A stretch of DNA of 37,209 nt from Archangiaceae bacterium (lineage in GTDB: Bacteria > Myxococcota > Myxococcia > Myxococcales > Myxococcaceae): positions 1 through 37,209 of the forward strand of contig JAYVCD010000007.1 in NCBI GenBank assembly GCA_043750125.1, written 5' to 3'. The notes beneath the pieces are model-generated. The model was given only the letters and a program-made list of their open reading frames with translations. It was not told the DNA's origin and did not search any database. The stretch's first letter is position 1. Each line of letters starts with the position of its first letter. Below are positions 17,012-37,209 of the stretch, piece after piece. Position numbers and translations under genes: made by a program.

Positions 17012-20000
17012 TCAAGGGCCGGGGCAGCCAGCCGCAGCGTTGCCCGTCGGAGCCGGACTCGACAGCGAGCCCACCGTCAGCGTGCACGAGGTGTGGGCAT
17101 TGACGGTGATTCGACCGACCGCTCCTCCGCCCCCGCCTCCTCCGCCATCTCCGGACGTGCCCGCGAAGCCCGCGGTCGGACCCAGCCCGGCACGCCCCCC
17201 GTTGCCGCCGTTTCCTCCCGAGTTCGCTCCGTTCATGCCCCCCATCGCGCTGACGGTGGGCGAAGTCGCGTCATCTCCGGGGTTGCCCGAATTCCCGCCG
17301 TCGTCGCCTCCTTCACCCCCGCCCCCGCCGTTGGCACTGAGGCGAGCCGTCACGGCGTAGGTGATTGAATCTCCCTCAAGAAGAATGGCCCCCCCGCTGC
17401 CGCCGCCCCCTCCCCCGGTGCGACTGGCGCCTCCCCGGCCACCTCCGCCCAGAGCCGAGATCCGCCCAGCGATGACCAAATTGCCTCCGGCCGAAATCTG
17501 AACCGCGCCTCCTCCCCCACCCCCCAGGCCTCCCGGAGCAGTGCCGGTGCCTCCCCTTCCACCCGAGCACCCGCCGCGCAGAGGGACCAGGGTCGCGTTC
17601 CCCCCCGCCAGCCCTTTGAGGCCCTTGGCCCCGCCGCTGCCCGAGACCTCTCCGGATTCTCCGTCGGTGCCAAACCCCGCCCCGCCGGCCCCGCCGCCCG
17701 AATTGCCGGACTGCATGCCCGGATTGCCATTGCTGGTTCCGCAGGCGGTGCTCGAGCCTCCGGGACCGGCGACCGTCGTCACCGCATCTGCGGTCACCGC
17801 GCCCAGGATGTTGGCGTCTGAAAATACGGCGAGCACGACGGGTCGGTTCCCGACGATCTGCACCGTGTTCCCGGCCACCACCATCAGGCTGATCATCGGA
17901 AGAATGACCAGGTCGGGCCCGCTCGATTGCACCTGCACCACTGGAACCGGCTGCACCTCGCCGCACCAATTGGAAAAAGTCAGCGTGGTGGAATTGAAGA
18001 CCGACACTCCGCAGTCGAACAGCAAATTTCCCACTGGAGTCAGCAAGCTGGGATCAAAGTTGCTCGGGGTGTATTTGAACGACGAGCACGCGCCGGCCTG
18101 GCACGTATTGCCCCCCGCGCACGCCGTCCCGTTGGTCGCAAAGCTGTCTGCCGGGCAGGTCGGGCTCGAGCCGGTGCAACTCTCGGCAGGATCACAGATG
18201 GCGCTGGCGCCCGCCGCGCGGCAAACGAAAGTCGCGGGCTTGTGCTGATCAACACAGACCCCCGCGCCATCGCAGGAGTCCGCGGCGTTGCAGTCGGTGG
18301 CGTCGGACGAGCCGCACGCGGTCGAGGCCGCCCCAAAGCCATTCGCCGGGCAGCTGGCCACGAGGCCGTCGCAGGTCTCGGCGGGATCACAGGCCGCGCT
18401 CGCTCCGGCGGGTCGACAGACGGTGGTCGCGGCCTTCACCCGGTCCACGCATCCTCCCGCCCCGTTGCATGAGTCCGGGGCGTTGCAGGCTGAGTTGTCG
18501 GCCGAGCCACACGCGGTGCTGCTGCTCGAAAACGCATTGGCAGGACAGAGCGCGGTGGTGCCATCGCACAGCTCGGCAGGGTCACAGGTGACATTGGCGC
18601 CCGCAGCGCGGCAGACGGTGGCGGAGGCCTTCACCCGGTCGACGCAGAGCCCCGTTCCACTGCAAGAGTCGGCGGCGTTGCACCCCGTGCTGTCGGCCGA
18701 ACCGCACGCGGTGCTGACGGGCGAGAAGGCATTGGCCGGGCAAGTGGCCACGACGCCATTGCAGGTCTCGGCCGGGTCGCAGGCCGGGTTGGCGCCGGCG
18801 GCGCGGCAAACAGTGGTGGCGGGTTTCACCCGATCAATGCAGCTGCCCGCTCCGTCGCAGGAATCCGCGTCGTTGCACGCGGTGGCAACGGCAGATCCGC
18901 ACGCCACGCCGGCGGTCGCAGCCGGGTACGCGCAGGTGCCACTGCTGCAGAGCGCCGCGGTGGCGGTGCGGCAGGCGGGGGGCGTCGCGCAGTCGGCCGC
19001 GGCGCAGCAGTTGGCTGCCGGAATACAGACGTTGTTGCACAGCTTGGTGCCCGCGCCGCAGCTGCACAGACCGGTGGAAACGGCACAGGTGCCTGCGGTA
19101 CCGCAGTCGGTGCTCACGCAGCAGCCCGTGCCCGGGGCGCAGAGGCCTGCGCAGACCCGTTGCCCGGCGGGACAGACGCAGGTCTCCGCCGAGCAAATCT
19201 GCCCCGGCACAACGGCGGCGCATTCGGCCGAATCGCAACAACTCGCCGAGGGGATGCAGGCGCTGCCGCAGATTTTCTGGCCGGCCGGACAGGCGCAAGA
19301 GCCCGACTGGCACGTCTGCCCAATGATGGGAGCGATGCAATCTGCGCTGGTGCAGCAGGTCGAAGCGGCGATGCAGTCTGCGCCACAGACCTTCTGGCCG
19401 GCTGCGCACGCACACGCTCCCGACTGACAGCTCTGGCCGGTGACCGCCGCGCACTCGACATCGCCGCAACAGCTCGCGGCGGAAATGCAGGCGCCATTGC
19501 ACGCCCTGGTCCCCGCGGCACAGGAGCAGCTCGAGCTTTGACAGGTACCGCCGCCGGCGCACGTCCGGGCATCACAGGTGGGGTCCGCGCAGTCGATGGC
19601 GCCGTTGCAGTTGTTGTCGATGCCGTCGTCGCACTTCTCGGCCTGGGTCGAGCAGCTGAGCGCCAACACCACCTGCTTGACCTGCCCTGCGACGAAAGAC
19701 TCGGGCTTGTCCTCACCTTCGAAGACCGCCACCAGCGGTTCGGTGCAGCCGTTGACGCCGTTCATCGCCCGCGCCTTGAGCCGAACGTTCGCGGGCCACA
19801 GTCCTTCGCTGATTCCCACCAGGTAGCTCTTCTTGGCGGGAACGCGCTTGAGCTGCGTCTTCTCGAGCAGCAGCCCGTCGGTGTTGCGCAGCTCGAGCAC
19901 GATGCAGTTGGCGGCGAGTGCGTCTTCTACGTCGATGCGCACCGACAGGCCGGCCCCGGTCAGCGGGTGCTGACACTGGCAGCCAGAAAAGAGGAATCCG

Positions 20001-20035
20001 ACGAAAAATACAGCGGTGCGAAACACAAATCTCAT
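17012..20035 (-). CDS. Cys-rich lipoprotein with disintegrin-like repeats and Gly-rich C-terminal domain
   Basis: ATG 20035 gives MRFVFRTAVFFVGFLFSG-CQC lipobox. EKCDDGIDNNCNG..DCAD motif, two Cys-repeat arrays, GGGGGSGGAILLE-type Gly-rich tail. Confidence 0.85.
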   Translation of the reverse strand: MRFVFRTAVFFVGFLFSGCQCQHPLTGAGLSVRIDVEDALAANCIVLELRNTDGLLLEKTQLKRVPAKKSYLVGISEGLWPANVRLKARAMNGVNGCTEPLVAVFEGEDKPESFVAGQVKQVVLALSCSTQAEKCDDGIDNNCNGAIDCADPTCDARTCAGGGTCQSSSCSCAAGTRACNGACISAASCCGDVECAAVTGQSCQSGACACAAGQKVCGADCIAASTCCTSADCIAPIIGQTCQSGSCACPAGQKICGSACIPSASCCDSAECAAVVPGQICSAETCVCPAGQRVCAGLCAPGTGCCVSTDCGTAGTCAVSTGLCSCGAGTKLCNNVCIPAANCCAAADCATPPACRTATAALCSSGTCAYPAATAGVACGSAVATACNDADSCDGAGSCIDRVKPATTVCRAAGANPACDPAETCNGVVATCPANAFSPVSTACGSADSTGCNAADSCSGTGLCVDRVKASATVCRAAGANVTCDPAELCDGTTALCPANAFSSSSTACGSADNSACNAPDSCNGAGGCVDRVKAATTVCRPAGASAACDPAETCDGLVASCPANGFGAASTACGSSDATDCNAADSCDGAGVCVDQHKPATFVCRAAGASAICDPAESCTGSSPTCPADSFATNGTACAGGNTCQAGACSSFKYTPSNFDPSLLTPVGNLLFDCGVSVFNSTTLTFSNWCGEVQPVPVVQVQSSGPDLVILPMISLMVVAGNTVQIVGNRPVVLAVFSDANILGAVTADAVTTVAGPGGSSTACGTSNGNPGMQSGNSGGGAGGAGFGTDGESGEVSGSGGAKGLKGLAGGNATLVPLRGGCSGGRGGTGTAPGGLGGGGGGAVQISAGGNLVIAGRISALGGGGRGGASRTGGGGGGSGGAILLEGDSITYAVTARLSANGGGGGEGGDDGGNSGNPGDDATSPTVSAMGGMNGANSGGNGGNGGRAGLGPTAGFAGTSGDGGGGGGGGAVGRITVNAHTSCTLTVGSLSSPAPTGNAAAGCPGP
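18125..18904 (-). repeat. Four tandem 195-bp (65-aa) disintegrin-like repeats
   Basis: Equivalent ACG codon blocks at 18897, 18702, 18507 and 18312 (exact 195-bp period). Consensus ACGS.D...CN..DSC.G.G.CVD..K.AT.VCR.AGA...CDPAE.C.G....CPA..F. Confidence 0.9.
18935..19529 (-). repeat. Five tandem ~38-39-aa Cys-rich repeats
   Basis: Consensus CxCxAGxxxCxxxCxxxxxCCxxxxC occurs five times. Boundaries approximate. Confidence 0.85.
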
Positions 20036-20078
20036 CCGCGACCACCTCGTCAGGCCCAGAGTACCACGCGCGGGTGGA

Positions 20079-20296
20079 TCACTGCCGTACGAGCCGAAAA
20101 CCCACACCCCGAACGGTTTTCAATTCGAAGCCCTCGCCCTTGAGCTTCTTCTTCAGGCTGCTGACAAAGTTGTCGACTGTGTGTGTGTCGACCACCACGT
20201 CGGCGCCCCAGACCGCGTCGAGAATTTCATCCCGGCTCAAAACCCGTTGTTCTCATTTGAGCAGGCAGACCAACAGGTCGAACTCTGTCGGGTCAA
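20079..20296 (-). pseudogene. OmpR/PhoB-type winged-helix DNA-binding domain remnant (receiver domain absent)
   Basis: PTEFDLLVCLLK*EQRVLSRDEILDAVWGADVVVDTHTVDNFVSSLKKKL..KTVRGV with in-frame TGA at 20253-20255. A 2-bp TG duplication displaces the canonical GFRL ending. Confidence 0.8.
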
Positions 20297-20820: not shown

Positions 20821-21024
20821 TTACTTCTTGGGAGCCGGCTTCGCCGTGTCGGCAGCAGGAGCAGCCGCGTCGTCGGCCTTCTTCTCTTCGCCCTTCTTCT
20901 CTTCGCCCTTCTTCGCCTTCTTCGCAGACTTCTCGGCCGGCTTGGCCTCGGCGGCAGGCGCGGGATCAGCGGCAAACGCGTTGAGGGCGAAGATCGACAG
21001 GGCAACAGTGAGGAGTTTCTTCAT
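20821..21024 (-). CDS. Small secreted Lys/Ala/Glu-rich low-complexity protein (67 aa)
   Basis: MKKLLTVALSIFALNAFA signal peptide, GGAG RBS upstream, KKGEE duplicated as a 15-bp repeat. Confidence 0.85.
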   Translation of the reverse strand: MKKLLTVALSIFALNAFAADPAPAAEAKPAEKSAKKAKKGEEKKGEEKKADDAAAPAADTAKPAPKK

Positions 21025-21077
21025 GGTGATTCTCCGGTGATTTTGAAGGTACCGCTTGATGCGGCATTCCGGTGTTC

Positions 21078-21093
21078 GCAGCCGATGTGCCAG
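21078..21093 (-). promoter_or_regulatory. sigma54 (-24/-12) promoter for the small secreted protein
   Basis: Minus strand CTGGCACATCGGCTGC: TGGCAC plus exact GG-N10-GC spacing, ~54 bp before ATG 21024. Confidence 0.75.
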
Positions 21094-24763: not shown

Positions 24764-26521
24764 ATGAGCATGCCGACCCGTCGGGCCTTGCGGCTGGTGA
24801 TTCGAAACCGAGATCAGCACCTGCAGCGGCTGCTTCCGCCCGGAGCGCAGGTTCGACTGGCGGGCCGAGCGCCGTGTGACGTTCAGCTGTCGGGGGTGGT
24901 GGGCGCGGTGCGGGTAGAGCGGGTGGAAGGCGCCGACGCGGTGCGGCTCTTCAACGAGAGTGCGCAGGAGCTCACGCTGGACGAAGTGCCGCTCGAGCCG
25001 GGGATGAGCGGGAAGCTGGGCCCGGGGTCCACCGCGCTGTGGGGGCCGGCCCGATTGGTGCTGGAGAACGGGGTGATGGCGGCGCCTGCCCAGCGGAGGA
25101 TCTGCACCCACTCGTATTTCGAGACGCGGCTGGAAGAAGAGTGCTTCCGCGCCGCACAACAGAGCACTTCCTTTGCGATTGTCGCGGTGGCGATTGCACC
25201 CGGCCCGTCGCCGAAGCAAATCGAAGAGCAGCTGGCCAACGTGCTTCGGGTGCTGGACGTGGTCTGCAGCTGGGGAGAGCGTCGGTACGAGCTGCTGCTG
25301 TTCGACGCCAACCCCGAGCAGGCCCGGATGATCTGCGCGCGGATCGTGACCGCGCTGTCGACGTTGGGAGCAATTCCGAAGCTGGGGCTCGCCTGCTTTC
25401 CGATCGATGGCGATGACCCCCACCTGCTGATCGAGAAGGCCAGCGCGACCCTGGTCGAAGGGGCGGTGGCCCGGGTGGAAGAGACGCGCCTGACGGGAAT
25501 GGGGCAGATCAACGCTTTGATTCAGCGCATCGCGCCCACCCCGCTGAGCGTGTTGCTTCAGGGCGAGACCGGAGTGGGCAAAGAGGTGGTCGCCCGAGCG
25601 ATTCACAAATTGTCGGTTCGCGCCCACAAGCCGATGGTCAACCTGATCATCGCCGCGATGCCCGAGACGCTGCTCGAGAGCGAGCTGTTCGGCTACGAGA
25701 AGGGCGCCTTCACCGGAGCGACCCAGGCGAAGACGGGCCTGCTGGAAGTGGCCGACGGCGGCACGGTGTACCTGGACGAAATCGGCGAGATGCCGCTGAG
25801 CTCGCAGGTCAAGCTGCTGCGGGTGCTCGAGAGTCGAGAGGTGGTCCCGGTCGGAGGAACGAAGCCGCGCCCGGTCGACGTCCGGATCATCAGCGCGACC
25901 AACCGGGACCTGGAACAGGAAGTCGAACGGGGGCAGTTTCGCGCGGACCTGATGTTCCGGATCAACGCGGTCACCATCCGGATTCCTCCCCTGCGCGAAC
26001 GGCTCGATGAGTTCGATGAGATCGCGCGCCGGTTGGTCGAAGAATCAGCGTTGCGAATGAGTCGGGAACCGGCGCAGCTGACCGCGGCGGCGCTGCAGTT
26101 GCTGCGCGCCTACCCGTGGCCCGGAAACGTGCGAGAGCTCAAGAACACTCTCGAGCGCGCGGTGGTGCTCTCGAAGACGCCGACCATTGACGTCGAGAGC
26201 TTCGATGAAGAGAAATTTCAGAATCGATTTGCGGTTCGACGGGGGGGACCGGGTCCTCGCCCGCTGGTGGCGGCGGCGGCGACTCAAAGTCCGCTTTTGC
26301 CGTCGGGCTCAGCCGAGCAGCTGCGGCAGCAGGCGAACGACGCCGAAAAGCAGGCGGCGATCGAAGCGCTCGAGGCGTGCGCCGGCAACCAGACTGCGGC
26401 GGCGAAGATGCTCGGGATTACCCGGCGAACGCTGATCGTGCGCATTCGAAAATATGGCCTTCCCCGGCCCCGGTCGGCCGAGGCGAGTGAGCCGGAAATC
26501 GACGCGCCTTCGAAGACGTAA
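24764..26521 (+). CDS. sigma54 enhancer-binding protein with FHA-like and degenerate GGDEF-like N-terminal domains
   Basis: [32 protein letters not shown]-terminal HTH. No receiver domain. The [33 protein letters not shown] segment has GGDEF-fold layout without the motif. Confidence 0.88.
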
Positions 26522-26523
26522 GG

Positions 26524-26570
26524 ACCCGCACCGCTCTCGAGCCCGAGGGGAAATGGGGTGCGGTGTGGGT
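26524..26570. other. Intergenic stem-loop
   Basis: ACCCGCACCGC ... GCGGTGTGGGT arms (one G-U pair) directly after the activator stop. No U-tract. Confidence 0.35.
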
Positions 26571-26630
26571 GCGTGATTCGCAGAGCGGAAACTCGTGGTT
26601 TGAAGTCATCGCCATTACACTCGACAGCCG

Positions 26631-27569
26631 ATGAGTGGCGTGTTCCGGGAAGAAGCCATCGCGCATCAGGAGGAACTGCGGCGCGCCCAGAACCTGGGGC
26701 GGCTTCTTCGGCTCACTCCCGCCTGGCTCGATGTGGCGTACCGGGCGGTGATCTTGATGATGGTCAGCGGGTGCGCTTTTCTGGCGGTGGCGCGCGTCGG
26801 CGACTTTGCCAGTGGGCCGGCGGTGGTGCGCTCGACCGCTCAGCAGATTCTCACTTCGACCCGCAGCGGGGTCGTGGCCGAGATTCACGTCCACCCCGGG
26901 CAGGAGGTCAAACGGGGCGACCTGTTGGTGCGGTTTGAAAGTCAGCCGTTCCTCGCCGAGCTGTCGGGGCTCGACGAGGCCATTCGCAACCAGACCCTGC
27001 GCAGCCTGAGCCATGTCGACGAGGAATCGGCCCGGGTGGCGCTGGCCAGTCTGTACGGTCAGCGAGACGAGATTCAGGCCCGGCTTCAGTCGCTGGGGGT
27101 GCGGGCGCCGTTCGATGGTCGGGTGCTCGACCTGCCTGTGCTGGTGGGCCAATACCGGGAAGCCGGTGACCCGGTGGCGCGAATCGAGAACGCCCAGGGC
27201 GCTTTCCGGCTGGTGGCGGCGGTGCAAGGCGAGTTTCGGCCGCTGTTGATGCCCGGCCAGGTGCTGGAAGTGGAATTCGACGGCTACCCCAACGCGATTC
27301 AAGAGCTGGTGGTGGGCCGGGTCTCGGATGCGGTGGTGGGCCCGGACGAAGTGCGGCGATACCTGGGCCGGTCGAACGCCGATGCGGTCGCGGTGACGGG
27401 TCCCCGGGTGCTGGTCGAAGCGGAATTCTCGAGCCCGACGTTCCGCCACCAGCATCAAGACCTGGCGTTGGTCGACGGGCTGACGGCGAAGGCGAGCGTG
27501 CGGGTTCAGTCGCAGCGGCTGATCGTCGCGTTGATTCCAGCCTTGAAGGCACTGCTCGACGATGGGTAG
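26631..27569 (+). CDS. HlyD-family membrane fusion protein
   Basis: FREEA N-terminus, single TM, lipoyl-like halves SGVVAEIHVHPGQEVKRGDLL and VRAPFDGRV. Adjacent to ABC transporter and TolC. Confidence 0.9.
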   Translation: MSGVFREEAIAHQEELRRAQNLGRLLRLTPAWLDVAYRAVILMMVSGCAFLAVARVGDFASGPAVVRSTAQQILTSTRSGVVAEIHVHPGQEVKRGDLLVRFESQPFLAELSGLDEAIRNQTLRSLSHVDEESARVALASLYGQRDEIQARLQSLGVRAPFDGRVLDLPVLVGQYREAGDPVARIENAQGAFRLVAAVQGEFRPLLMPGQVLEVEFDGYPNAIQELVVGRVSDAVVGPDEVRRYLGRSNADAVAVTGPRVLVEAEFSSPTFRHQHQDLALVDGLTAKASVRVQSQRLIVALIPALKALLDDG

Positions 27570-29775
27570 CCCCCTTCCCGAACCTCAGAGCACGGTGGTC
27601 GAACGCACGCTCGAGGCCTTGCGCCGCGCGACGATCGACCGGGATCCTTTCCGGTTCATCGAAGGCACGACGGCGGTCGACTGTGGCCTCGCGTCATTGG
27701 CGATGGTCCTCGCCTATCACGGGCGTCACGTCACCATCGAGCAGCTGCGAAAGACGCTGCCGATCGACACCGACGGAGTGAGCGCCCGGATGTTGCTCGA
27801 TGCGGCCCGGGTCTACGGGCTGCGCGCGCGGGCGGTGACCCTCGAGTTTGATCAGCTCGAGGCAGTGCCGCCTGCGTCGATCCTCTACTGGAACTTCAAC
27901 CACTTCGTGGTGCTCGACTGGGTTCGCGGCGGCAGCGCGCGGATCCTCGACCCGGCCTTCGGAGATCGCGAGCTGCCGCTGGATCAGGTGCGCAAGTCCT
28001 TCACCGGCGTGGTTTTGCTGTTGGAACCGACGGATCAATTCGAGCAGGTCGACACCCGGCCGTCCCTGTTTCGCTTCGTCCAGAAGGTGCTCAAAGACCG
28101 CGGGCTGATCGCGCGGATTCTGGTCGTCTCGGCCTGGATCCAGCTGCTCTCGTTCACCCTTCCGCTGCTGACCGGGTTGGTGGTCGACCGGTTGCTGCCG
28201 CGGAAAGACGAGGCGCTGTTCAAGGTCATCATCGCCGGGCTGGCCGTGGTGGTCGTCTTTCGCGCCTTCAGCGGGCTGGTGCGAGACCAGCTGATCTTGT
28301 ACCTGCGGACCCGTATCAACACCGAGCTGTTGGTCGGGCTTTTCGAACACGTCGTCCAGCTGCCGCTCGATTTTTTCCGCCGCAGACTCTCGGGTTCCCT
28401 GGTCCAGCGAATCGACAGCGTGGACTACATCCGCGAAGCGCTGGGGATCCAGGTGGTGTCGGTGTTGCTCGACGGGATCTTCGGCCTGTTGGCAGTCACG
28501 GTCTTGTTCTTCATCGACTGGCGCTTCGGAGCGCTGACGTTGTTCTGGAGCGCGGTCGACACCGCCGCGGTGGTTTCACGCTGGAAGCGCTTCTTGAAGA
28601 TCGCCCGGCGGCAGAGCGAAGAGGCGTCCCGCGCCCACGCCCAGCTGTTCGAGATGCTTTCCGGAATACAGATGATCAAGGCGGCGGGCGTCGAGCTGCG
28701 CATCCTCGGCCGCTGGGCCCACGCGCTGACCGACCAGCTGAACCTGCGGCTCGCGTTGGGCAGCATGGAAGCCTGGCTGAAGATGATCACCACCGGGATC
28801 GCGGTCATCGCTCCGGCCAGCGCGCTGATGCTCGGCACCCGCCTGGTGCTCGATGGGCAGATGAGCCTGGGCACGATGCTGGGAGTCAATGCGCTGGCGA
28901 TGTCGGCCCTCGTCGCGGCGGGATCCCTCGCCGACACGGTGCGCTCGCACCTCGAGTTGCCGGTGCACGCCACCCGAATTCAAGATCTGCTCGAGGTCGA
29001 GCCCGAGCACTTTGGGCGGACGGTGCGACCGGCAGGCCACCTGACCGGAGCGGTGAAGCTGTCGAAGGTCGTCTTCCGGTACGGGCCGCTGTCCCCGCTG
29101 GTGTTGGACGATGTGTCGCTGACGGTCGACGCGGGCCAGTTCGTGGCGATCGTGGGTCACTCGGGCTCGGGGAAGACGACGCTCGGCAACATGCTGATCG
29201 GGCTCGACTTGCCGGCCGAAGGCACGGTGGAGCTCGATGGGGTCAACATCCAGGAATTCGATCTGGGCACGGTGCGGCGGCAAACGGGAGTGGTGGGGCA
29301 AAAGACGTTTCTGCTCGCCGCCACGATTCGCGAGAACATCTCGCTCTTGGACAACGACATTCCGGTCGAGGAGATCATCGACGCCGCCCGGGTCGCAGCG
29401 ATTTCCGATGAGATCGAAGCGATGCCGATGAAGTACGACTCGCTGATCGCCGAAGACGGCAGCTCGCTGTCGGGAGGCCAACGCCAACGCCTGGCGATCG
29501 CGCGGGCCGTGGTCCGCAAGCCGGTGTTGATGCTGCTGGACGAAGCGACCAGCGCCCTCGATTCAGAGACCGAGCGGCGGCTGCAGACGAACCTGGCGTC
29601 GCTGCAATGCACCCGGATCGTAATTGCCCACCGGCTGAGCACCATTCGTCAGGCAGATCTGATCGTGGTGATGGCGAAGGGGAAGATCGTCGAGCAGGGC
29701 ACCCATTCGCAGCTGCTCGCGCTCAATGCCCATTACGCCCGGCTGATCGCCGCGCAGCTGGAACCGCAGTCGTGA
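27562..29775 (+). CDS. Peptidase C39-containing ABC transporter (PCAT, LanT/SunT type)
   Basis: DCGLASLAMV (Cys), NHFVVL (His), ILDPA (Asp). TM domain, GHSGSGKT, LSGGQRQ, LLDEATS, IAHRL. Confidence 0.95.
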   Translation: MGSPLPEPQSTVVERTLEALRRATIDRDPFRFIEGTTAVDCGLASLAMVLAYHGRHVTIEQLRKTLPIDTDGVSARMLLDAARVYGLRARAVTLEFDQLEAVPPASILYWNFNHFVVLDWVRGGSARILDPAFGDRELPLDQVRKSFTGVVLLLEPTDQFEQVDTRPSLFRFVQKVLKDRGLIARILVVSAWIQLLSFTLPLLTGLVVDRLLPRKDEALFKVIIAGLAVVVVFRAFSGLVRDQLILYLRTRINTELLVGLFEHVVQLPLDFFRRRLSGSLVQRIDSVDYIREALGIQVVSVLLDGIFGLLAVTVLFFIDWRFGALTLFWSAVDTAAVVSRWKRFLKIARRQSEEASRAHAQLFEMLSGIQMIKAAGVELRILGRWAHALTDQLNLRLALGSMEAWLKMITTGIAVIAPASALMLGTRLVLDGQMSLGTMLGVNALAMSALVAAGSLADTVRSHLELPVHATRIQDLLEVEPEHFGRTVRPAGHLTGAVKLSKVVFRYGPLSPLVLDDVSLTVDAGQFVAIVGHSGSGKTTLGNMLIGLDLPAEGTVELDGVNIQEFDLGTVRRQTGVVGQKTFLLAATIRENISLLDNDIPVEEIIDAARVAAISDEIEAMPMKYDSLIAEDGSSLSGGQRQRLAIARAVVRKPVLMLLDEATSALDSETERRLQTNLASLQCTRIVIAHRLSTIRQADLIVVMAKGKIVEQGTHSQLLALNAHYARLIAAQLEPQS

Positions 29776-31142
29776 CGGTGCGAGCCGTGGCGGCCTGGGT
29801 CGCGCTTTGGGCCACCGGGGCAGGCGCCGACCCGCTGACGCTGGACGAAGCGCTGGGACAAATCGATGGGTCGAGCGTCGAGGTGCTCGAAGCCCGGGCC
29901 CGGGTCGACCTGGCCCAGGCGCGCCAACGCACGGCGCTGGCCGGGTTGCTGCCGCGCCTCGAGGTGGCGGGGGCGATTTCGCGAAACTCGCTTCCCGCCG
30001 AGCTGGACTTCGTGGTGCCCGAGAAGGGCTACAGCGCTCGGCCGCTGGTCGGGCCGGGGATCCCGGCGGGCTCGCTCGAGCTGACGCCCAATGAAGTGAC
30101 GACCCTGACGGTGCAGCCGCTGACCCAGCTGTCGGTGACTGCGCAGGCGACGGTGCCGTTGCTCGATCTTCCGGCGGTGGGTCGGGTCCGCGCCACCGGA
30201 ACCCGGGCGAGGGCTTCAGGGCTGCAGCTTCAGCGGGTCCGCTTCGAGGCGCGGATCCGAATCTGGGAAGGGTTGCTGCAAGCCCGAGCGGCCGAGCAGC
30301 TGGTGTCGATTTCTCAGGCGCGGCTGAAGGTGGCGCGTGAACAAGAGCAGGCGGCGCGGCAGCGAACCCGTTCCGGAGAGCTGGCGCCGCTGGCGATGGC
30401 GAGGGCCGCCGCCACGGCCGCGGCAGCCGAGCGGACGCTGCGTCTGGCGAGGGCGAACGAGGTCGGAGCGCGACTGGCGATCGCCGCCCAGCTGGGGCGC
30501 GACGAACACTTCGCGGTGGGGGCGATTGCGTCTCCGGCGGCGGCGGCCTGGGAAGTGGACGACGCAAGCCAGAGCCCGAGGCTCACCGCGCGGCCCGACC
30601 TGCTGGCGGCGAATGCGTTGGTGGACGCGAGCCGGCAGGACGTCTGGACGGCGCGGCTGGGCCTGGCCCCTGAGCTCGATGCCAACGCCCAGTTCGTGGC
30701 GGGCAACGCCGAGAGCTTCAGCGGCGCCACCCAATACTGGCTGGTGCAGCTGCGGCTGCGGTGGAGGATTTTCGATGGGGGCCAGACGTACGGGTTGATT
30801 CGTGAAAGTGGGGCTCTGGTCCGCCAGGCGAGCGCGAACCAGCAGCGGCTCTCGAGAGAAGCCCAACGGATTCTGGGCCAGGCCAAAGAGCAGGTCGAAA
30901 CGGGAATTTCGGCGTTGGCCAGCGCCCGGGCCGAGCTGGCGTTTGCGACCGAGGCGCTGACCAGCGCGCGGGCGCTCTTCAACAGTGGCGAGGTGGGCTA
31001 CCTCGAGTTGCTCGACGCGCAGACCGGCCGGTTTGGAGCCGACGAGGCGGTGGTGATCGAACGGCTGCGGCTCGACGTGGGACGGCTGGCGTTGGCGCTG
31101 GCCCGCGGCGAGGAACCCGTGCCCAGCCCGGTCACGGAATGA
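29772..31142 (+). CDS. TolC-family outer membrane efflux protein
   Basis: GTG 29772 overlaps the PCAT stop. Signal peptide then LTLDEAL, LLPRLEV, RPDL, WRIFDGG, YLELLDAQ motifs. Confidence 0.9.
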   Translation: MTVRAVAAWVALWATGAGADPLTLDEALGQIDGSSVEVLEARARVDLAQARQRTALAGLLPRLEVAGAISRNSLPAELDFVVPEKGYSARPLVGPGIPAGSLELTPNEVTTLTVQPLTQLSVTAQATVPLLDLPAVGRVRATGTRARASGLQLQRVRFEARIRIWEGLLQARAAEQLVSISQARLKVAREQEQAARQRTRSGELAPLAMARAAATAAAAERTLRLARANEVGARLAIAAQLGRDEHFAVGAIASPAAAAWEVDDASQSPRLTARPDLLAANALVDASRQDVWTARLGLAPELDANAQFVAGNAESFSGATQYWLVQLRLRWRIFDGGQTYGLIRESGALVRQASANQQRLSREAQRILGQAKEQVETGISALASARAELAFATEALTSARALFNSGEVGYLELLDAQTGRFGADEAVVIERLRLDVGRLALALARGEEPVPSPVTE

Positions 31143-32007
31143 CGGCCAGCCCCCGATGCAGCCGCGCGAGGGTGCGCAGGTAGGTGCATTCCTCTTCGTC
31201 CAGCGGGCCGAGGGCGAGGGCGGCGTCGAGGCTGTGAACCTGGGCGGGGCTGCGAAACGCACACAGCACTCCGTCGAGCTCGGGCCGGGTGAGGACGAAG
31301 CGGTAATGGTCGGTGACCTCGGGCCGCCAGGCATCTTCCGGCAACCGCAGCTGCAGACAGCGGGCGGGCGAGACGTAGTCGGTGGTGCTCTTGAAGTTGT
31401 AGTGCAGCGGCCGCAGGGCGGGGACTTTGGGAAAGAGGTCCTTCTCGGCGCCGGGGTGGGCGGGGTTGTAGCGGGTGTAGGCGATGTCGATCAGCCGGTG
31501 CTGCAGCGCCATCACCGCGGCCGGGCGATCATGGAAGGAAGCGCCCACCGCCCGAACCCCGGGGAGGTCGGTGAAATGTTCCTGGTAGCGGTTGACCCGC
31601 ACGTAGAACTCGTTCGCGTAGGTGCCTCCAATGACGGTGAGGTCGACGCGCTCGAGGCCAGGCACCGCTTCGATCAGCTCGATGAACGGCAGGTGCGCGA
31701 ACTCGAGTTGGGTCACGTACGAGACCGCGGCCACCACCACGTCGTCCCGCACCGAGGGCCCGCGCGCGAACAACGCCTTCAGACCTTCGCGCAGGGCGCT
31801 GTACAGCGGCCAGTGCATGTCGGCGGTGACGAAGAAGAAATTGATTCCCAGGTCGTAGGCGTCGAGCACCGTCTGAGGGCTGTCGACGATGCCCAGACAA
31901 AAGGGGCTCACCCGCAGGCCCTGCTCGCCCAGGACCTGACGGTCTTTCAGGCGGGGAAGCGTGGTCCGCGGGACGGGGGCGAGGGAGGGAACGGAAGGGG
32001 CGGTCAA
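31132..32007 (-). CDS. Atypical aldo-keto reductase-fold protein
   Basis: LGEQGLRVSPFCLG, AYDLGINFF, GASFHDR, RYNPAH, YRFVLTRP, ALGPLDEEE follow the AKR layout. Probable TTG start at 32007 overlaps the lanB stop. Confidence 0.75.
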   Translation of the reverse strand: MTAPSVPSLAPVPRTTLPRLKDRQVLGEQGLRVSPFCLGIVDSPQTVLDAYDLGINFFFVTADMHWPLYSALREGLKALFARGPSVRDDVVVAAVSYVTQLEFAHLPFIELIEAVPGLERVDLTVIGGTYANEFYVRVNRYQEHFTDLPGVRAVGASFHDRPAAVMALQHRLIDIAYTRYNPAHPGAEKDLFPKVPALRPLHYNFKSTTDYVSPARCLQLRLPEDAWRPEVTDHYRFVLTRPELDGVLCAFRSPAQVHSLDAALALGPLDEEECTYLRTLARLHRGLAVIP

Positions 32008-35000
32008 GGTGCGGGCCGGGCGCGAAGGGTGATCAGCCGACGAACCCAGAAGTCGAGGAGAGCCGCTTCGTTCGCGCGCTGCTCGGAACGCAACATCCGG
32101 TTGACGTGCATGTGGACCCACGAGCCAAGCACGCCCCCGAGTCTTCCGTCGAGTTGAAGCGCGGTCAGGCCCTTCCACAGCGGGACGCAGCGCTCGCGCC
32201 AGGCAACGAAGTGCGGGCGGCTGTTCTCGAGCTCGGGGGGCAGCTGCGCGCCGCCGGTCGCGGCCTCGAGCTTCTTTCGCAGCATGCGGTGTTCGGCAGA
32301 GATCCGGTCCAGCCCGGCGCTCTTGATTCCGAGCTCTTCGCGAAAGCCGTCGCGGGCCGCGGTCCACAGCTTCAGTTGTTCTTCGTGCGGCAACGCGAGG
32401 GACTGCAGCATCGTCGAGAGGGCGACCCACGCGGCCAGCCACCGCGCGTCCCCGTCTTGCTCGGTGGTGCTGACGACGCCCACCACCAGGTCGCTGTCGG
32501 CGCAGAAGAACTTTTCCGCCAGGGCCATGCCGGACGGGCCGCCGTAGCGCTCGATTTCGCGCTCGTAGGTGTCGATGCGAAAGCGCCGCACCAACCGCTG
32601 TTCGCTGGCCCGCTGGTAGACCGCGCAGACCCGGGGCAGCACTTCTTTGAGCAGCACCTGGGGATCGCCGGAAAAACGCACCCGCAGGTGGGTGTCGGGG
32701 TCCGCGTAGCGAAGGAAGAACCAACCGGAGATCAACCCGTCGGCGCGCAGCTGGGCGACCAGCGGACCCAGGTGCTCGACCAGCACCCGGTCGGCGTCGG
32801 TCACTCCGCCATACCACTGGGTGTAGAGCCAGCCGCTGCCGGGGGGGAAAGTGCGCTCGGCCGGTGGCACCTTCTCTCGCGCCAGCAACGGGCGGCGAGG
32901 GGCCGAGGCCGTCGAGCCCAGGGGGACGACGAACTCGTTGGTGTAGCCCCCGTTTGAATCGGTCACCCCGCTCTGGCCGGGAACGGGCAACAGCTCCTCG
33001 AAGACCGCCACCGGACGTCGCACCGCCGTCGAGAAGGTGGCCTCGACGCTCAGCGGGTTGTCGAGGTCGGTCGGAAGCAGATTGTCGAACTCGCTGAGCG
33101 CGATGAACCGCGGCCAACCCAGCTGGGCGCGCAGCGTCTGGACCGAAGTGAAGCGGGCCGAAGGGCTCAAATCCCGCAGCGGCTTGAGCCTCGGCTCGTC
33201 GACGGTCCAGCGGGCCGGGGCGAGGATCAACCCGTCGAGCACCAGCCGCGGAAGCACCGGGGTGGACCGCAGCGCCCCCCAGTCGAACACCCCGGGCAGC
33301 TCGGCCTGCCGCTCGACCGAGCTCAAGAAGCGATAGGCGGCCAGGTTGTCGGGTGAAGAGGTGTTGTGCATGTGGGTCAGCCGCGGAAGCACTTCCCGCC
33401 CCAGCGCAGCGCTTCGCAACACCACCCGGTCTCCCCGGACCGAGACCCGCAGGTCGTCCATCGGAATCTGGTTTTCAGCCCGCGCGCTCGAGCGGCTGAG
33501 GTAGACGATCTCGTGGGTGCCCAGCACCGGCCGATGCATGATGTTGCCGACCCGGTCGGGAGGAATGTGCGCCACTTCGGCGACGATCGCCTCGGGGTGC
33601 GCGGCGGCATCTTGCTGCGCGTACCCTTTGACCCAGTCGCTGAGCCGGGGGTCGAGATGACAAAATCGGCCAAACCAGGCCGAGGCGTTGTGTTCCCGAA
33701 AGCCTCCCAGCACCGCCCGGGGCTTTCCGTCTTCCGGGGCCAGCACGATCAACCGCAGCGAGGCGCCCCGGGGCAGGTGCACCGCAGGGCTCTGGGCCGC
33801 CAGCTTCGCAAGCGCCGCGCGGTCGAGGACAATCGCCCGGTCGCCCCGCTGCAGCGCCTCGCCGACGCGGAAGCGAAGGTAGCGTTCGAACGGGGTGTCG
33901 CGGGCCACCGGGGAAGTGTCGGGAAGCTCGCCGCGCATCAAGCGGGCCAGTCGCGAAGGAGTCGCCCCGCTTTGAGGAGCGTCAGGAAACCCGATGCCCG
34001 ACTCTTCATCGAGCGCCTCGAGCAGGGGAACTTCGGCCGCTTCGTAGCGGGCATTGAAGGCGCTCTTGAAGCCCTCGAGCGCGCGCCGCCGAGGCGAGAG
34101 CCGAACCAACAGCTCGCAGACGAAGACCGCCTGACTGACCATCCGCTCGGACAGCACCACCCCGTCTGCCGAGCGCGCGAGGTCGACGTGAAGAAATTGC
34201 CCCCGGCTGGGTTTCAGCGCGCCGACGGTGGCCGACTGCTCGAGCGCTTCGTAGAGCGCCGGCGAGTTCCCCAGCGCGCGGGCATCGATCGCGGCCGCTC
34301 CTTCGCTCAATTTTCGCAGCAGCGGGGCCGCCGGGTGATCCACCGCGGCGAGCTGTTCGGCCAGCTCGAGGGCGGCGTCGGAACCGGTGGCGGTCGGTTG
34401 AATGTGGGGCACCAGCAGCTGGGCGTCGATCAGCGAATCGAGCCAGGGCAGGGTGTTGCCTTTCGCGGCGCTGTCCGCGCCCGGCCAGAGGGCGTCGAAC
34501 AGGCCTTCGAGGGTGATGGGAGCGCGGGCGAAGTTCAGTGTCTTCTCGAGGTCGTCGTCGACCTCCACCGCCGCCAGCTGAGACAGGCGCAGCTCGTCGC
34601 GCATCACCGTCTGAACGAAACGAAACCGATCGCCGACCCGGTACAGGCTGGTGTTGGTCTGGTAGCGAAGCTTCCCGCGCCACTGGGGGTCGCTGCCGAT
34701 CGCGCTGCTCAGCTTCCAGAGGTAGTCCATGTCCAGCCGGGTGAGCCGCCAGAACTTGCGCTCGAAATGAAGGCTTTGGGTGGCGCCCACCGCGGCGAAC
34801 GAGACCGACGAGAAGAGGCCGAACGGAGTCGCGCGCCCCGCCATTCGAAACAGGTAGCGCACCAGCGCCGATTCGACGCGCTGGCCCTGTTCGCTCTGGG
34901 GCGCTTCGAGCCAGGCGGGCAGAGATCCATGCAGCTGCGGGGAAGCGACGTAGAGCGCTTCGTTGATCGCCGGGTCGCAAACCACCGCCCGTAGCTTCTG

Positions 35001-35111
35001 GCGAATCGCCTCGGGGGACGGCGCGTTCCAATGGATCAGCGAATCGAGCGGGAGAAGAGGCATTCGAACCACTGCGACGCCGGAGTGCCGCAGTCCGTCT
35101 TTCCAATCCAT
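32004..35111 (-). CDS. lanB: Class I lantibiotic dehydratase (glutamylation + elimination domains)
   Basis: 1035 aa. VVRMPLLP, RYLFRMAGRATPFGLFS, FGRFCH, NIMHRP. Elimination domain WLY, FFLRYADPDTHLRVRF, YEREIERYGG, VHMHVNR. Confidence 0.95.
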   Translation of the reverse strand: MDWKDGLRHSGVAVVRMPLLPLDSLIHWNAPSPEAIRQKLRAVVCDPAINEALYVASPQLHGSLPAWLEAPQSEQGQRVESALVRYLFRMAGRATPFGLFSSVSFAAVGATQSLHFERKFWRLTRLDMDYLWKLSSAIGSDPQWRGKLRYQTNTSLYRVGDRFRFVQTVMRDELRLSQLAAVEVDDDLEKTLNFARAPITLEGLFDALWPGADSAAKGNTLPWLDSLIDAQLLVPHIQPTATGSDAALELAEQLAAVDHPAAPLLRKLSEGAAAIDARALGNSPALYEALEQSATVGALKPSRGQFLHVDLARSADGVVLSERMVSQAVFVCELLVRLSPRRRALEGFKSAFNARYEAAEVPLLEALDEESGIGFPDAPQSGATPSRLARLMRGELPDTSPVARDTPFERYLRFRVGEALQRGDRAIVLDRAALAKLAAQSPAVHLPRGASLRLIVLAPEDGKPRAVLGGFREHNASAWFGRFCHLDPRLSDWVKGYAQQDAAAHPEAIVAEVAHIPPDRVGNIMHRPVLGTHEIVYLSRSSARAENQIPMDDLRVSVRGDRVVLRSAALGREVLPRLTHMHNTSSPDNLAAYRFLSSVERQAELPGVFDWGALRSTPVLPRLVLDGLILAPARWTVDEPRLKPLRDLSPSARFTSVQTLRAQLGWPRFIALSEFDNLLPTDLDNPLSVEATFSTAVRRPVAVFEELLPVPGQSGVTDSNGGYTNEFVVPLGSTASAPRRPLLAREKVPPAERTFPPGSGWLYTQWYGGVTDADRVLVEHLGPLVAQLRADGLISGWFFLRYADPDTHLRVRFSGDPQVLLKEVLPRVCAVYQRASEQRLVRRFRIDTYEREIERYGGPSGMALAEKFFCADSDLVVGVVSTTEQDGDARWLAAWVALSTMLQSLALPHEEQLKLWTAARDGFREELGIKSAGLDRISAEHRMLRKKLEAATGGAQLPPELENSRPHFVAWRERCVPLWKGLTALQLDGRLGGVLGSWVHMHVNRMLRSEQRANEAALLDFWVRRLITLRARPAP

Positions 35112-35227
35112 GAGCGGGATTGTGCGGCCCCCCGCGGGGAAGGAACACTTTTACGAGCGCGAGCTGGCTCATTTCGGGCGCACCACCCCAGTTTCGGGGA
35201 GGATGGCGTGTTTTTTTCGAGACCCGA

Positions 35228-37209
35228 ATGGCCAACGACGAGGACAAGACCCGAGCGCAAGATGACTTCGGCGAGGGTCGGGTTCTGGTCCCGATTGGGG
35301 AAGAAGAACCTTTGCCCACGTTGCCGGACCGGCTCGGGGAATACATTCTCAAAGAGCGGTTGGGCGAGGGCGGTCAGGGGATCATCTTTCGAGCGGTTCA
35401 GGATCTGCTCGGCCGCGAAGTGGTGGTCAAAATCCTCAGCACCCGGGGCTTGACCGAGGCCGGCCGCCAGCGGTTTCTGCGCGAGGCCCGGCTCGCCTCG
35501 CTGTTGGATCACCCCTTCGCCGCCCACGTGTACGGCTTTGGAGCCGAGCCCGACGGGACGCTGTGGATCGCGATGGAGCTGGTGCGCGGGCGCTCGCTGT
35601 CGAGCCTGCTGGTCGGCAAACGGCGAATGCCGCTGCATCGCTTCACTCCGCTGCTGTCCGGTCTGTGCGAGGTGATTCACACCGCCCACGAGCAGGGCAT
35701 CGTCCACCGGGACATCAAGCCGGCCAACGTGATGGTGATCAGCCGGGCGGGTCGCTTGATGCCCAAGCTGCTCGACCTGGGGGTGGCGAAGACCCAGGCC
35801 GACGAGGGGACCCCGGGCGAGAAGGCCAAAGACTCGTCCACCCCGCCCCGCGACCCGACGGAAATCACTCCGAAGGTGCCGATTTCTGCCTGGGACCCCT
35901 CGCCGGGAGTGGCTGCGCCGAGCGCGCCCACACCCCGGGGAACTCAAGAGGCCAAAGTCCCCACCACTCCGACCCCCGGACAGCTGTCTGCGGTGCCTTC
36001 GGACCGGACGGATCTCGATTTGACCGGCACTGGAATTGCGGTGGGGACCCCGCGCTACATGGCACCCGAGCAGTGGATTGGGAGCGCCGACCTCGATCGC
36101 CGAGCCGACATCTACGCGCTGGGAGTCCTGAGCTTCCAGTGCCTCACCGGCCAGCTTCCCTTCTCGGGGGCCAACGACACCGAGCTGATGAGGGCGCACC
36201 TGTTCAGTCCTCCGCCCTCGCTGCCCGGCGACTTTCCGGCCGAGCTCTCAGTGGTGCTCGCGCGGGCGATGGCGAAGAAGCCGGAAGACCGGTTCCAGAC
36301 GTCGCTGACGTTCTTCGCCGCGTTTGCCGAGGCGGCCGGAGCGTCCGACACCCAGAGCGTGCTGCCGCTGTTCGACGAGGTGGTGCGAGACGAGGTGATG
36401 GTCCAGGCCCCTCAGCCGATCGCCGAATCGCTGTCTGGGTTGGATGCCGCGCGCACGCTCGATGAAGGGTGGACCCGGCTGCATCGAACGCTGCACGCCC
36501 TGGTGCAGTACCTGGCGCTGCTGAGCCTCAGCGCGCGCGGAACGCTGGGCCCGCCTCCGGACAACGACGAGGCCCAGGTCAGGGCGCTGCTGCGGCGGCT
36601 GCGTGCCTCGGGCCTGTCGTCTGCCGACTGGTTGGATCTGACGATTGCGTTACTGGCACCGTGGCGCCAGAAGCCCGCGGGCTTCGTCCTGCCAGAGCTT
36701 TTGGCGTTGTTCTTTCAGCCCGACGAGAAGAACAGCGCCGCGGTGGCGACCTTCAAGGCCCTCACCCGGCCTCCGCCCACCCCGGACAAAAAATACTTCA
36801 CCGAAGCGCTCGAGAGCCTCAACGCGCTGCTGCGTCGGGCGGCGGTGCTGACCCAGTACACGCTCGCCCGCCGGCTGGGGGCCACGCTCGAGTCCTGGTC
36901 TGGAATCCGGCGCGCCACCCGCCCGGGCTGGCCGAACCAGGACGACGCGCTGACCCTGGGTGAATTCGTCCTCGTCGATGCGGCGCTGGTTCCGGTGTTG
37001 AAGTTGAGCCCGCTGCTGCAGGCGCTCGAGCCGACTCCGGGGCAGAGCGCCGAGCCGTTCATGTTGTCGCGCTGGGGTCGCCGGGGCGCGGTGTTGAGCG
37101 CGCAGCCGCGCGACTTCGAGCGCTACGACGAACACGTGGAAGGTTGGCTCGAGAAGGTATTTCCCGGGCTGTTCACCGAAGGGGTGACCCACGAAGTCGT
37201 CGAGAAGGC
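35228..37209 (+). CDS. Hanks-type Ser/Thr protein kinase, multidomain, runs off the window
   Basis: Translated by hand from ATG 35228: LGEGGQG, VVVK, HRDIKPAN, DLG, GTPRYMAPE, DIYALG. No stop seen before the window end, so it is absent from the ORF track. Confidence 0.92.
   Translation, partial: MANDEDKTRAQDDFGEGRVLVPIGEEEPLPTLPDRLGEYILKERLGEGGQGIIFRAVQDLLGREVVVKILSTRGLTEAGRQRFLREARLASLLDHPFAAHVYGFGAEPDGTLWIAMELVRGRSLSSLLVGKRRMPLHRFTPLLSGLCEVIHTAHEQGIVHRDIKPANVMVISRAGRLMPKLLDLGVAKTQADEGTPGEKAKDSSTPPRDPTEITPKVPISAWDPSPGVAAPSAPTPRGTQEAKVPTTPTPGQLSAVPSDRTDLDLTGTGIAVGTPRYMAPEQWIGSADLDRRADIYALGVLSFQCLTGQLPFSGANDTELMRAHLFSPPPSLPGDFPAELSVVLARAMAKKPEDRFQTSLTFFAAFAEAAGASDTQSVLPLFDEVVRDEVMVQAPQPIAESLSGLDAARTLDEGWTRLHRTLHALVQYLALLSLSARGTLGPPPDNDEAQVRALLRRLRASGLSSADWLDLTIALLAPWRQKPAGFVLPELLALFFQPDEKNSAAVATFKALTRPPPTPDKKYFTEALESLNALLRRAAVLTQYTLARRLGATLESWSGIRRATRPGWPNQDDALTLGEFVLVDAALVPVLKLSPLLQALEPTPGQSAEPFMLSRWGRRGAVLSAQPRDFERYDEHVEGWLEKVFPGLFTEGVTHEVVEK

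Follow-up and report, generated by a model that had tools for sequence, protein, structure and literature searches.

Class I lanthipeptide clusters, such as those that encode NisB and NisC for nisin or MibB for microbisporicin, use a full-length LanB dehydratase of the glutamyl-tRNA type and an ABC exporter that cleaves the leader peptide, and loci related to the one studied here carry LanC together with Ser/Thr/Cys-rich precursors whose leaders have Gly-Gly-type ends. Few such peptides have been characterised from Gram-negative phyla. The stretch of DNA analysed here, hereafter the window, is the whole of contig C7 (JAYVCD010000007.1, 37,209 nt) from a metagenome-assembled genome (MAG; 6.17 Mb in 460 contigs, 89.4% complete) of an Archangiaceae bacterium, and it holds a cluster that is a variant of this class. 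The two are alike in a full-length LanB and in a leader-cleaving exporter, which in the window is a peptidase-containing ABC transporter (PCAT) with a C39 domain and, through its HlyD adaptor and TolC channel, of the Gram-negative tripartite type. The window differs in having an extra, conserved gene that overlaps lanB and encodes a protein with an aldo-keto reductase (AKR) fold, and in that neither LanC nor a precursor (LanA) was found in the window or the MAG, so that on these two components the likeness fails in the data at hand. We consider it likely that the locus is a LanB-dependent, class-I-type ribosomal peptide cluster in which the translationally coupled AKR-family member, called the partner below, is a dedicated accessory of Ser/Thr-dehydrating pathways.

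A functional parallel is offered by the LanJ reductases. According to the available text of PMC7268733 and PMC9486802, the zinc-dependent dehydrogenase LanJA, the flavin reductase LanJB and the F420H2-dependent LanJC convert dehydroalanine and dehydrobutyrine (Dha and Dhb) to D-amino acids. Like them, the partner is an accessory with an oxidoreductase fold encoded beside a Ser/Thr dehydratase, but it has no sequence relation to these Zn-dehydrogenase, FMN-reductase and luciferase-like F420 types (no Pfam or NCBIfam match), is an AKR barrel with non-canonical residues, and has an activity that is putative. Genome mining has brought to light a LanB/LanC cluster of myxobacterial origin that includes a sigma54 regulator (PMC11876861), and a large lanthipeptide survey (PMC7268733) listed neighbour and tailoring genes by Pfam family. 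Since the AKR-like family has no Pfam model, surveys built on Pfam would not have seen it. A literature search, supplements aside, returned no paper linking an aldo-keto reductase to the maturation of lanthipeptides or of other peptides that are made on the ribosome and modified after translation. Because the family is linked with JmjC oxygenases and with two mechanistically unrelated systems of Ser/Thr dehydration, it is a concrete, testable candidate for new post-dehydration chemistry, and its LanC-free versions, if real, would add a class of LanB-only products.

The pairing of LanB with an AKR-like gene was found to recur well beyond the window. Among 8000 scored candidates from a collection clustered at 90% identity, 559 matched the family at E ≤ 0.001, and a library clustered at 50% identity contained 791, 395 and 155 family clusters at E ≤ 1e-3, 1e-10 and 1e-30, respectively. 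Fourteen clear family loci were taken from species-representative genomes (L002 to L015), and in eight of them a LanB is encoded no more than 7 kb away from the AKR-like gene; these eight span Myxococcota, Planctomycetota, Verrucomicrobiota and Acidobacteriota, and fall into Phycisphaerae, other Planctomycetota, Chthoniobacteraceae, Vicinamibacterales and Myxococcota. Of the three metagenome loci of at least 4.9 kb, L054 and L055 also show the pairing, and in the third (L052) a PCAT adjoins the AKR-like gene. The gene order in L002 is HlyD-PCAT-AKR-LanC-LanB, with an adaptor and a PCAT that are 33% and 42% identical to those of the window, and by this synteny the exporter is part of the cluster. 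The pairing is a conserved LanB-partner module and not a product of chance, and the partner stands for a new and genuine accessory family within clusters of a kind already known. An initial annotation, made from the letters of the window alone, had proposed that LanB and the AKR-fold gene form a unit facing a dedicated peptide exporter, and both proposals are borne out by the recurrence across phyla and by the L002 synteny.

The genes of the cluster, called from the list of open reading frames (ORFs) with Pfam and NCBIfam scans, are the following.

24764..26521, + strand: sigma54-dependent activator (PF00158, AAA+, E 8e-66; PF02954, Fis-type helix-turn-helix)
26631..27569, + strand: HlyD-type periplasmic adaptor, 312 aa (Pfam HlyD_3 and HlyD_D23)
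27562..29775, + strand: PCAT with C39, transmembrane and nucleotide-binding domains (PF03412, PF00664, PF00005)
29607..31142, + strand: TolC-family outer-membrane channel (Pfam OEP, E 5.5e-29; TIGR01844 below cutoff)
31132..32007, − strand: barrel protein of the AKR superfamily, 291 aa, from a family not yet characterised (predicted from fold model and profile homology)
32004..35111, − strand: full-length LanB with glutamylation and elimination domains, 1035 aa (PF04738, E 5e-131; PF14028, E 6e-60)
35228..37209, + strand: Ser/Thr kinase-nSTAND1-WD40 gene, 5' part, truncated at the contig end (Pfam Pkinase)

The AKR-like gene begins with TTG in a 4-nt overlap with the lanB stop, and its own stop overlaps the convergent TolC stop (31142) by 11 nt. 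The kinase ORF opens at 35120 or 35228, and from the latter start a gap of 116 nt separates it from the divergent lanB. The TolC ORF probably has its real start past 29775, and the N-terminal ~240 aa of the sigma54 activator have no Pfam match. For the PCAT, the closest NCBIfam model is TIGR03796, at 571 bits and thus below its cutoff of 853, and its C39 region carries Cys41 and His114, which we take to be the catalytic residues. Gene content and overlaps as given in the initial annotation (LanB, AKR-fold gene, HlyD-PCAT-TolC and sigma54 activator) were reproduced from the ORF list and Pfam, and both positions adjoining the LanB/AKR-like unit are indeed occupied by other genes. The full-length LanB with two motif sets that it described likewise stands, with both Pfam domains complete and the motif columns kept. 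This LanB aligns over ~900 residues with the solved LanBs 9g04, MibB and NisB. In an alignment of 19 LanBs, the 18 others agree fully at 104 columns, 93 of which it keeps, and it shares the glutamylation and elimination motif columns that are invariant across eight aligned LanBs. The highest identity that it shows with a relative is 41%, and from its sequence it looks functional.

The structure of the partner was modelled with AlphaFold2 from a 30-sequence alignment (predicted local distance difference test score, pLDDT, 94.9). A Foldseek search with this model gave no fewer than 500 matches in the PDB at E ≤ 0.001; among the matches listed, the top ones were aldo-keto reductases plus SmbA, with probability 1.00 and a query TM-score (TMq) of up to 0.73. 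The SmbA entries (6gs8 and 6gtm, with c-di-GMP or ppGpp by their titles) reached a TMq of 0.55-0.57, lower than the AKR enzymes. A search with the family profile retrieved AKRtyl at E 3e-4, and hhalign of the family against seven canonical AKRs taken from weak-hit loci gave 97.8% and E 7e-13. With canonical AKRs such as AKRtyl (8jwo), YdhF (1og6), AKR14A1 (4ast) and L-galactose dehydrogenase (7smi) the partner shares a predicted (alpha/beta)8 barrel, the N-terminal hairpin and profile homology, but the identity is 14-20%. On the model and the profiles we confidently assign the partner to the AKR superfamily as a predicted barrel, by fold and profile homology and not by catalytic residues; the AKR fold that the initial annotation had named is upheld. 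At the strand ends the family has the invariant residues D63, H65, W66, Y97, Q100, H159, R161, R179, N181 and H184, and the partner looks like an enzyme, though not a textbook AKR.

A second genomic context sets the family beside other dehydrating enzymes. AKR-like genes occur with JmjC/cupin_8 genes in L003, L004, L005, L012 and L060, and in L004, L012 and L060 the two genes overlap or abut. Three of these loci (L004, L005 and L012) have APH-type kinases, and L003 and L060 have lyase-type genes of the HopA1 family. The AKR-like proteins associated with JmjC or HopA1 make up one separate clade (support 97/94; 6 of the 34 rows of the tree), and natural fusions are known from two proteins, P0124, with HopA1 at residues 123-293 and an AKR-like domain at 308-589, and P0150, which joins JmjC to an AKR-like domain. 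In class V lanthipeptides and in thioamitides, Ser/Thr dehydration is the work of an APH kinase paired with a HopA1-like lyase (PMC9486802). This clade, a sister clade within the AKR-like family, resembles the LanK/LanY systems (CaoK/CaoY and LxmK/LxmY) in its LxmK-like kinases, its HopA1 genes and its HopA1 fusion, but it differs in that the kinases scanned, those of L005 and L012, have LxmK as best NCBIfam match at 57-61 bits, far below the cutoff of 315, and in that no precursors were seen. Genes for LanK (APH-type kinase) and LanY (HopA1-type lyase) are absent among the annotated genes of the window and occur only in loci of this sister clade. The LanB pairing, taken with the APH-kinase/HopA1 clade and the fusions, shows an AKR-like family shared by two unrelated dehydratase systems, and a partner common to two routes to dehydroamino acids is the best argument that it acts on those residues.

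In the pathway that we propose, LanB would glutamylate Ser and Thr residues of a leader-bearing precursor and eliminate the glutamate to give Dha and Dhb, and the barrel protein would then act on these residues or on the same beta-carbon chemistry. The PCAT would cut the double-Gly-type leader and export the product via HlyD and TolC, and the sigma54 activator, perhaps along with the STAND kinase, would control expression. By analogy, the barrel protein might carry out a non-canonical conjugate reduction to D-Ala or D-aminobutyrate with the invariant His65 as acid, an assignment that we make tentatively and regard as somewhat doubtful; the LanJ precedent, with its three unrelated reductase folds, and the Cys-free candidate cores described below speak for it. 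The alternatives for this step would be another conjugate addition, an isomerisation, or a role as a non-redox or non-catalytic partner. A route to an N-terminal lactate by 2-oxoacyl reduction was considered and rejected, as the candidate cores in L007, L010, L015 and L054, the related loci inspected for the residue after Gly-Gly, do not by our reading start with Ser or Thr.

Several observations weigh against a LanB-dependent cluster with a dedicated AKR-fold accessory; they concern LanC, the precursor, the reach of the family, the active site of the partner and the divergence of LanB, and each is taken with the alternative on which it bears. Pfam found no LanC among the genes of the window, though the contig breaks off inside the 5.4-kb kinase gene, 2.1 kb upstream of lanB. 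Nor was LanC detected in the 6.17 Mb of the MAG by Pfam (PF05147), tblastn or a custom six-frame profile (best E 0.74). The same Pfam search found LanC in all five genomes of related loci and in nine of ten LanB genomes from the same family or order. LanC lies within 10 kb in eight of the ten other LanB+AKR loci (L002, L006, L007, L010, L013, L015, L054 and L055), and in six of these it directly adjoins one of the two genes, LanB or AKR-like; L008 is truncated at a contig end. In the taxonomic family of the window, the LanBs with the closest scores mostly have LanC adjacent and no AKR-like gene, and LanC is adjacent in six same-family or same-order genomes with such a LanB (G020, G028, G036, G034, G030 and G059). 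The initial annotation had described the locus as LanC-less, but this is no trait of the family, since eight loci keep LanC. It had also given, as something that would refute its reading, that homologous loci all keep lanC; this is largely so, apart from L011, which is LanC-free together with its genome. As to a lanC elsewhere in the genome, none turned up in the MAG, which is 89.4% complete and in which the contig ends near lanB.

The precursor presents a similar picture. No candidate was found in the intergenic regions of the window, where small ORFs and Ser/Thr/Cys-rich tails all lay off-frame of larger genes, and nothing in the MAG scored above cutoff for NF038155, TIGR03793 or PF07862 (the FDLD, NHLP and Nif11 precursor models). 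When the candidate precursors of relatives, 17 in number, were searched against the MAG with phmmer, the best E was 0.013, and seven inspected matches were off-frame, low-complexity sequence. Candidate double-Gly-type precursors are found in eight of the ten other LanB+AKR loci (L006, L007, L010, L011, L013, L015, L054 and L055), and four of the 17 candidate ORFs contain no Cys; L002 has a complete neighbourhood yet no precursor. In the planctomycete loci, two or three candidate precursors stand in tandem (L013:4418-5295 and L006:3483-4012) with a common, basic and Glu-rich leader type, and one of the tandem copies in L013 is Cys-free. The reach of the family raises doubts of its own: of the 14 family loci, L009 and L014 show no peptide-modification genes nearby, the JmjC/HopA1-type loci yielded no precursor, and that clade may act on proteins instead of small peptides.

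With respect to LanC, there is close to an even chance that the window holds an ordinary LanB/LanC cluster split by the assembly, with lanC and Cys-bearing precursors lying past the 5.4-kb kinase gene or unbinned and the AKR-fold protein serving as an extra tailoring enzyme. This would agree with the prevalence of LanC in comparable loci and beside the closest-scoring LanBs, with the incompleteness of the MAG, and with the position of the contig end. No contig of the MAG overlaps the 3' end of C7, and public contigs of 6761 nt from runs X1 and X2, possibly the source samples, begin at position 36540 of the window and extend 6091 nt past it. The kinase of the window is 100% identical over residues 300-660 to P0280, a protein of 1807 aa with Pkinase, nSTAND1 and WD40 domains whose gene lies complete on a contig of 24.7 kb, and from this full length the gene is expected to end near 40651. 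L006 has a mirror layout: a large kinase gene diverges there from AKR-LanB, and past it come LanC, a pair of precursors and an FAD oxidoreductase, on the side that corresponds to the contig end of the window. Set against a split cluster are the occupation of both positions at which LanC adjoins LanB or the AKR-like gene in six of eight loci, the lack of any LanC fragment in 6.17 Mb, and the LanC-free version in L011. A kinase that itself carries a LanC-like domain was ruled out, as full-length P0280 has only the three domains named. The L006 precedent and the contig end, together with a complete L002 neighbourhood that lacks a precursor, lead us to hold the presence and the absence of a role for LanC in this genome at roughly even odds. 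Within the kinase domain, at 35683-35773, the summed contig depth jumps to ~630-700 in each of the four runs and loose ends are numerous, as a conserved kinase motif common to contigs of many other organisms would produce; read depth was not used as evidence.

A truly LanC-independent pathway of LanB and the AKR-fold protein, the reading of the initial annotation, in which the dehydro residues would be kept, reduced or otherwise processed and no thioether rings formed, has a serious claim as well, if one that falls somewhat short of even. LanC-less LanB+AKR loci do exist. L011 lies mid-contig (243 kb) and encodes an AKR-like protein, a CxxC-rich ORF of 450 aa, a candidate precursor free of Cys, and LanB; no LanC occurs up to 10 kb from the AKR-like gene or anywhere in the 8.2-Mb genome (G066), but its precursor is a small ORF and a candidate only. 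G015, from the family of the window and 86% complete, carries both LanB and an AKR-like gene and lacks LanC, but this genome is fragmented and the two genes sit on separate short contigs. The lack of LanC in the MAG points the same way, as do the overlap of lanB stop and partner start, seen only in the window, and a LanB that is the most diverged one with its motifs intact; against it stand the nearby contig end, the failure to find a precursor, and LanC being so common in comparable loci. A LanC-free, reductive pathway is a plausible hypothesis. It is an unlikely extension of this view, though one worth stating, that the AKR-fold family would be a new dehydroamino-acid-processing class recruited independently by LanB and by LanK/LanY, whose LanC-free loci (the window and L011) would make non-lanthionine peptides in which a re-tooled, His-centred AKR site turns Dha and Dhb to D-residues or joins them to another nucleophile. 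The 450-aa ORF of L011 (L011:10924-12276, +), between the AKR-like gene and LanB, has an N-terminal CxxCxxC...CC motif, no Pfam or NCBIfam match and no homologue in the MAG or the other fetched loci.

The active site of the partner raises the question of whether it is a catalyst at all. The protein has no Pfam or NCBIfam family match, including none to PF00248 at E ≤ 0.01, and only five of 30 family members match PF00248 weakly (best E 7e-5). With D48, Y53, K86 and H133 as the canonical reference tetrad, of which the Asp, Tyr and Lys are invariant in the seven canonical AKRs, hhalign pairs these three with V60, H65 and V95 of the partner, and the fourth position, the His, is ambiguous, being G127 by strand register and H144 by hhalign at low confidence. 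At least three of the four catalytic residues are replaced, and the equivalents of the Asn and Gln that, from AKR structures, we take to contact the nicotinamide are F158 and R179. With these catalytic residues and the nicotinamide-contact positions replaced, NAD(P)H use and the label of reductase are only putative for this protein, and the replacements count against a reduction of Dha and Dhb. A non-catalytic subunit with a ligand-binding, regulatory or scaffold role, like AKR-fold proteins that lack redox chemistry, would accord with these replacements, with the c-di-GMP and ppGpp complexes of SmbA among the best structural matches, and with sigma54 activators and kinases as frequent neighbours. 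We nevertheless regard it as rather improbable, given that the strand ends of the barrel are densely set with invariant His, Asp, Arg and Tyr, and that fusions join the family to enzymes (HopA1-type lyase and JmjC) and not to regulators. It is very unlikely that the locus is a decaying remnant that has lost lanC and lanA while lanB and its partner drift, for although the window LanB has the longest branch of the LanB tree (1.4 vs a median of 0.58) and departs more often than any other from columns that the rest keep invariant (11 of 104), and no precursor was found, both reading frames are intact, the remaining columns are kept, the LanB of the complete L006 cluster departs at 10 of 103, the start and stop codons still overlap, and the exporter is intact.

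Regulatory genes recur around the AKR-like family. Sigma54 activators flank AKR-like genes also in L007, L008, L049, L062 and L084. In L007, between the sigma54 activator and a cNMP-binding PCAT, there is an ORF at 4938-5999 (−) whose match to TIGR04500 (putative peptide maturation system protein) has an E of 3.6e-13 and falls short of the cutoff. Kinases of the nSTAND1 type recur near AKR-like genes in L003, L004, L005 and L084; in L003-L005 a Pkinase-nSTAND1 protein of ~1000 aa is encoded ~5 kb upstream, and in G015 an nSTAND1-WD40 fragment and a kinase adjoin the AKR-like gene. A sigma54 promoter pattern with up to two mismatches gave 23 matches in the window vs 40 expected, and no promoter-like sites were seen upstream of lanB or hlyD. 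The best such site, with one mismatch, is at 21078-21092, within a stretch (20821-21092, −) where it stands just upstream of a small ORF for a signal peptide and, after it, a tail rich in Lys, Ala, Glu and Pro. This stretch lies in the stretch of lowest GC (0.59), beside a histidine kinase and sigma54 response regulator pair.

The rest of the window, positions 1-24500, holds unrelated genes (MoxR/BatA, histidine kinase and response regulator, Maf, and Cys-rich secreted proteins). Two of the latter are large repeat proteins, at 17012-20107 (−) and 8213-12193 (+), with weak matches to Disintegrin and to MopE motifs. Cys-rich proteins with DUF4215 or MopE/FG-GAP also flank AKR-like genes in L003-L005 and L011, which in Myxococcota may be coincidence. 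Positions 1-99 of the window match the final 99 nt of contig C391 exactly, which is an overlap of the assembly graph.

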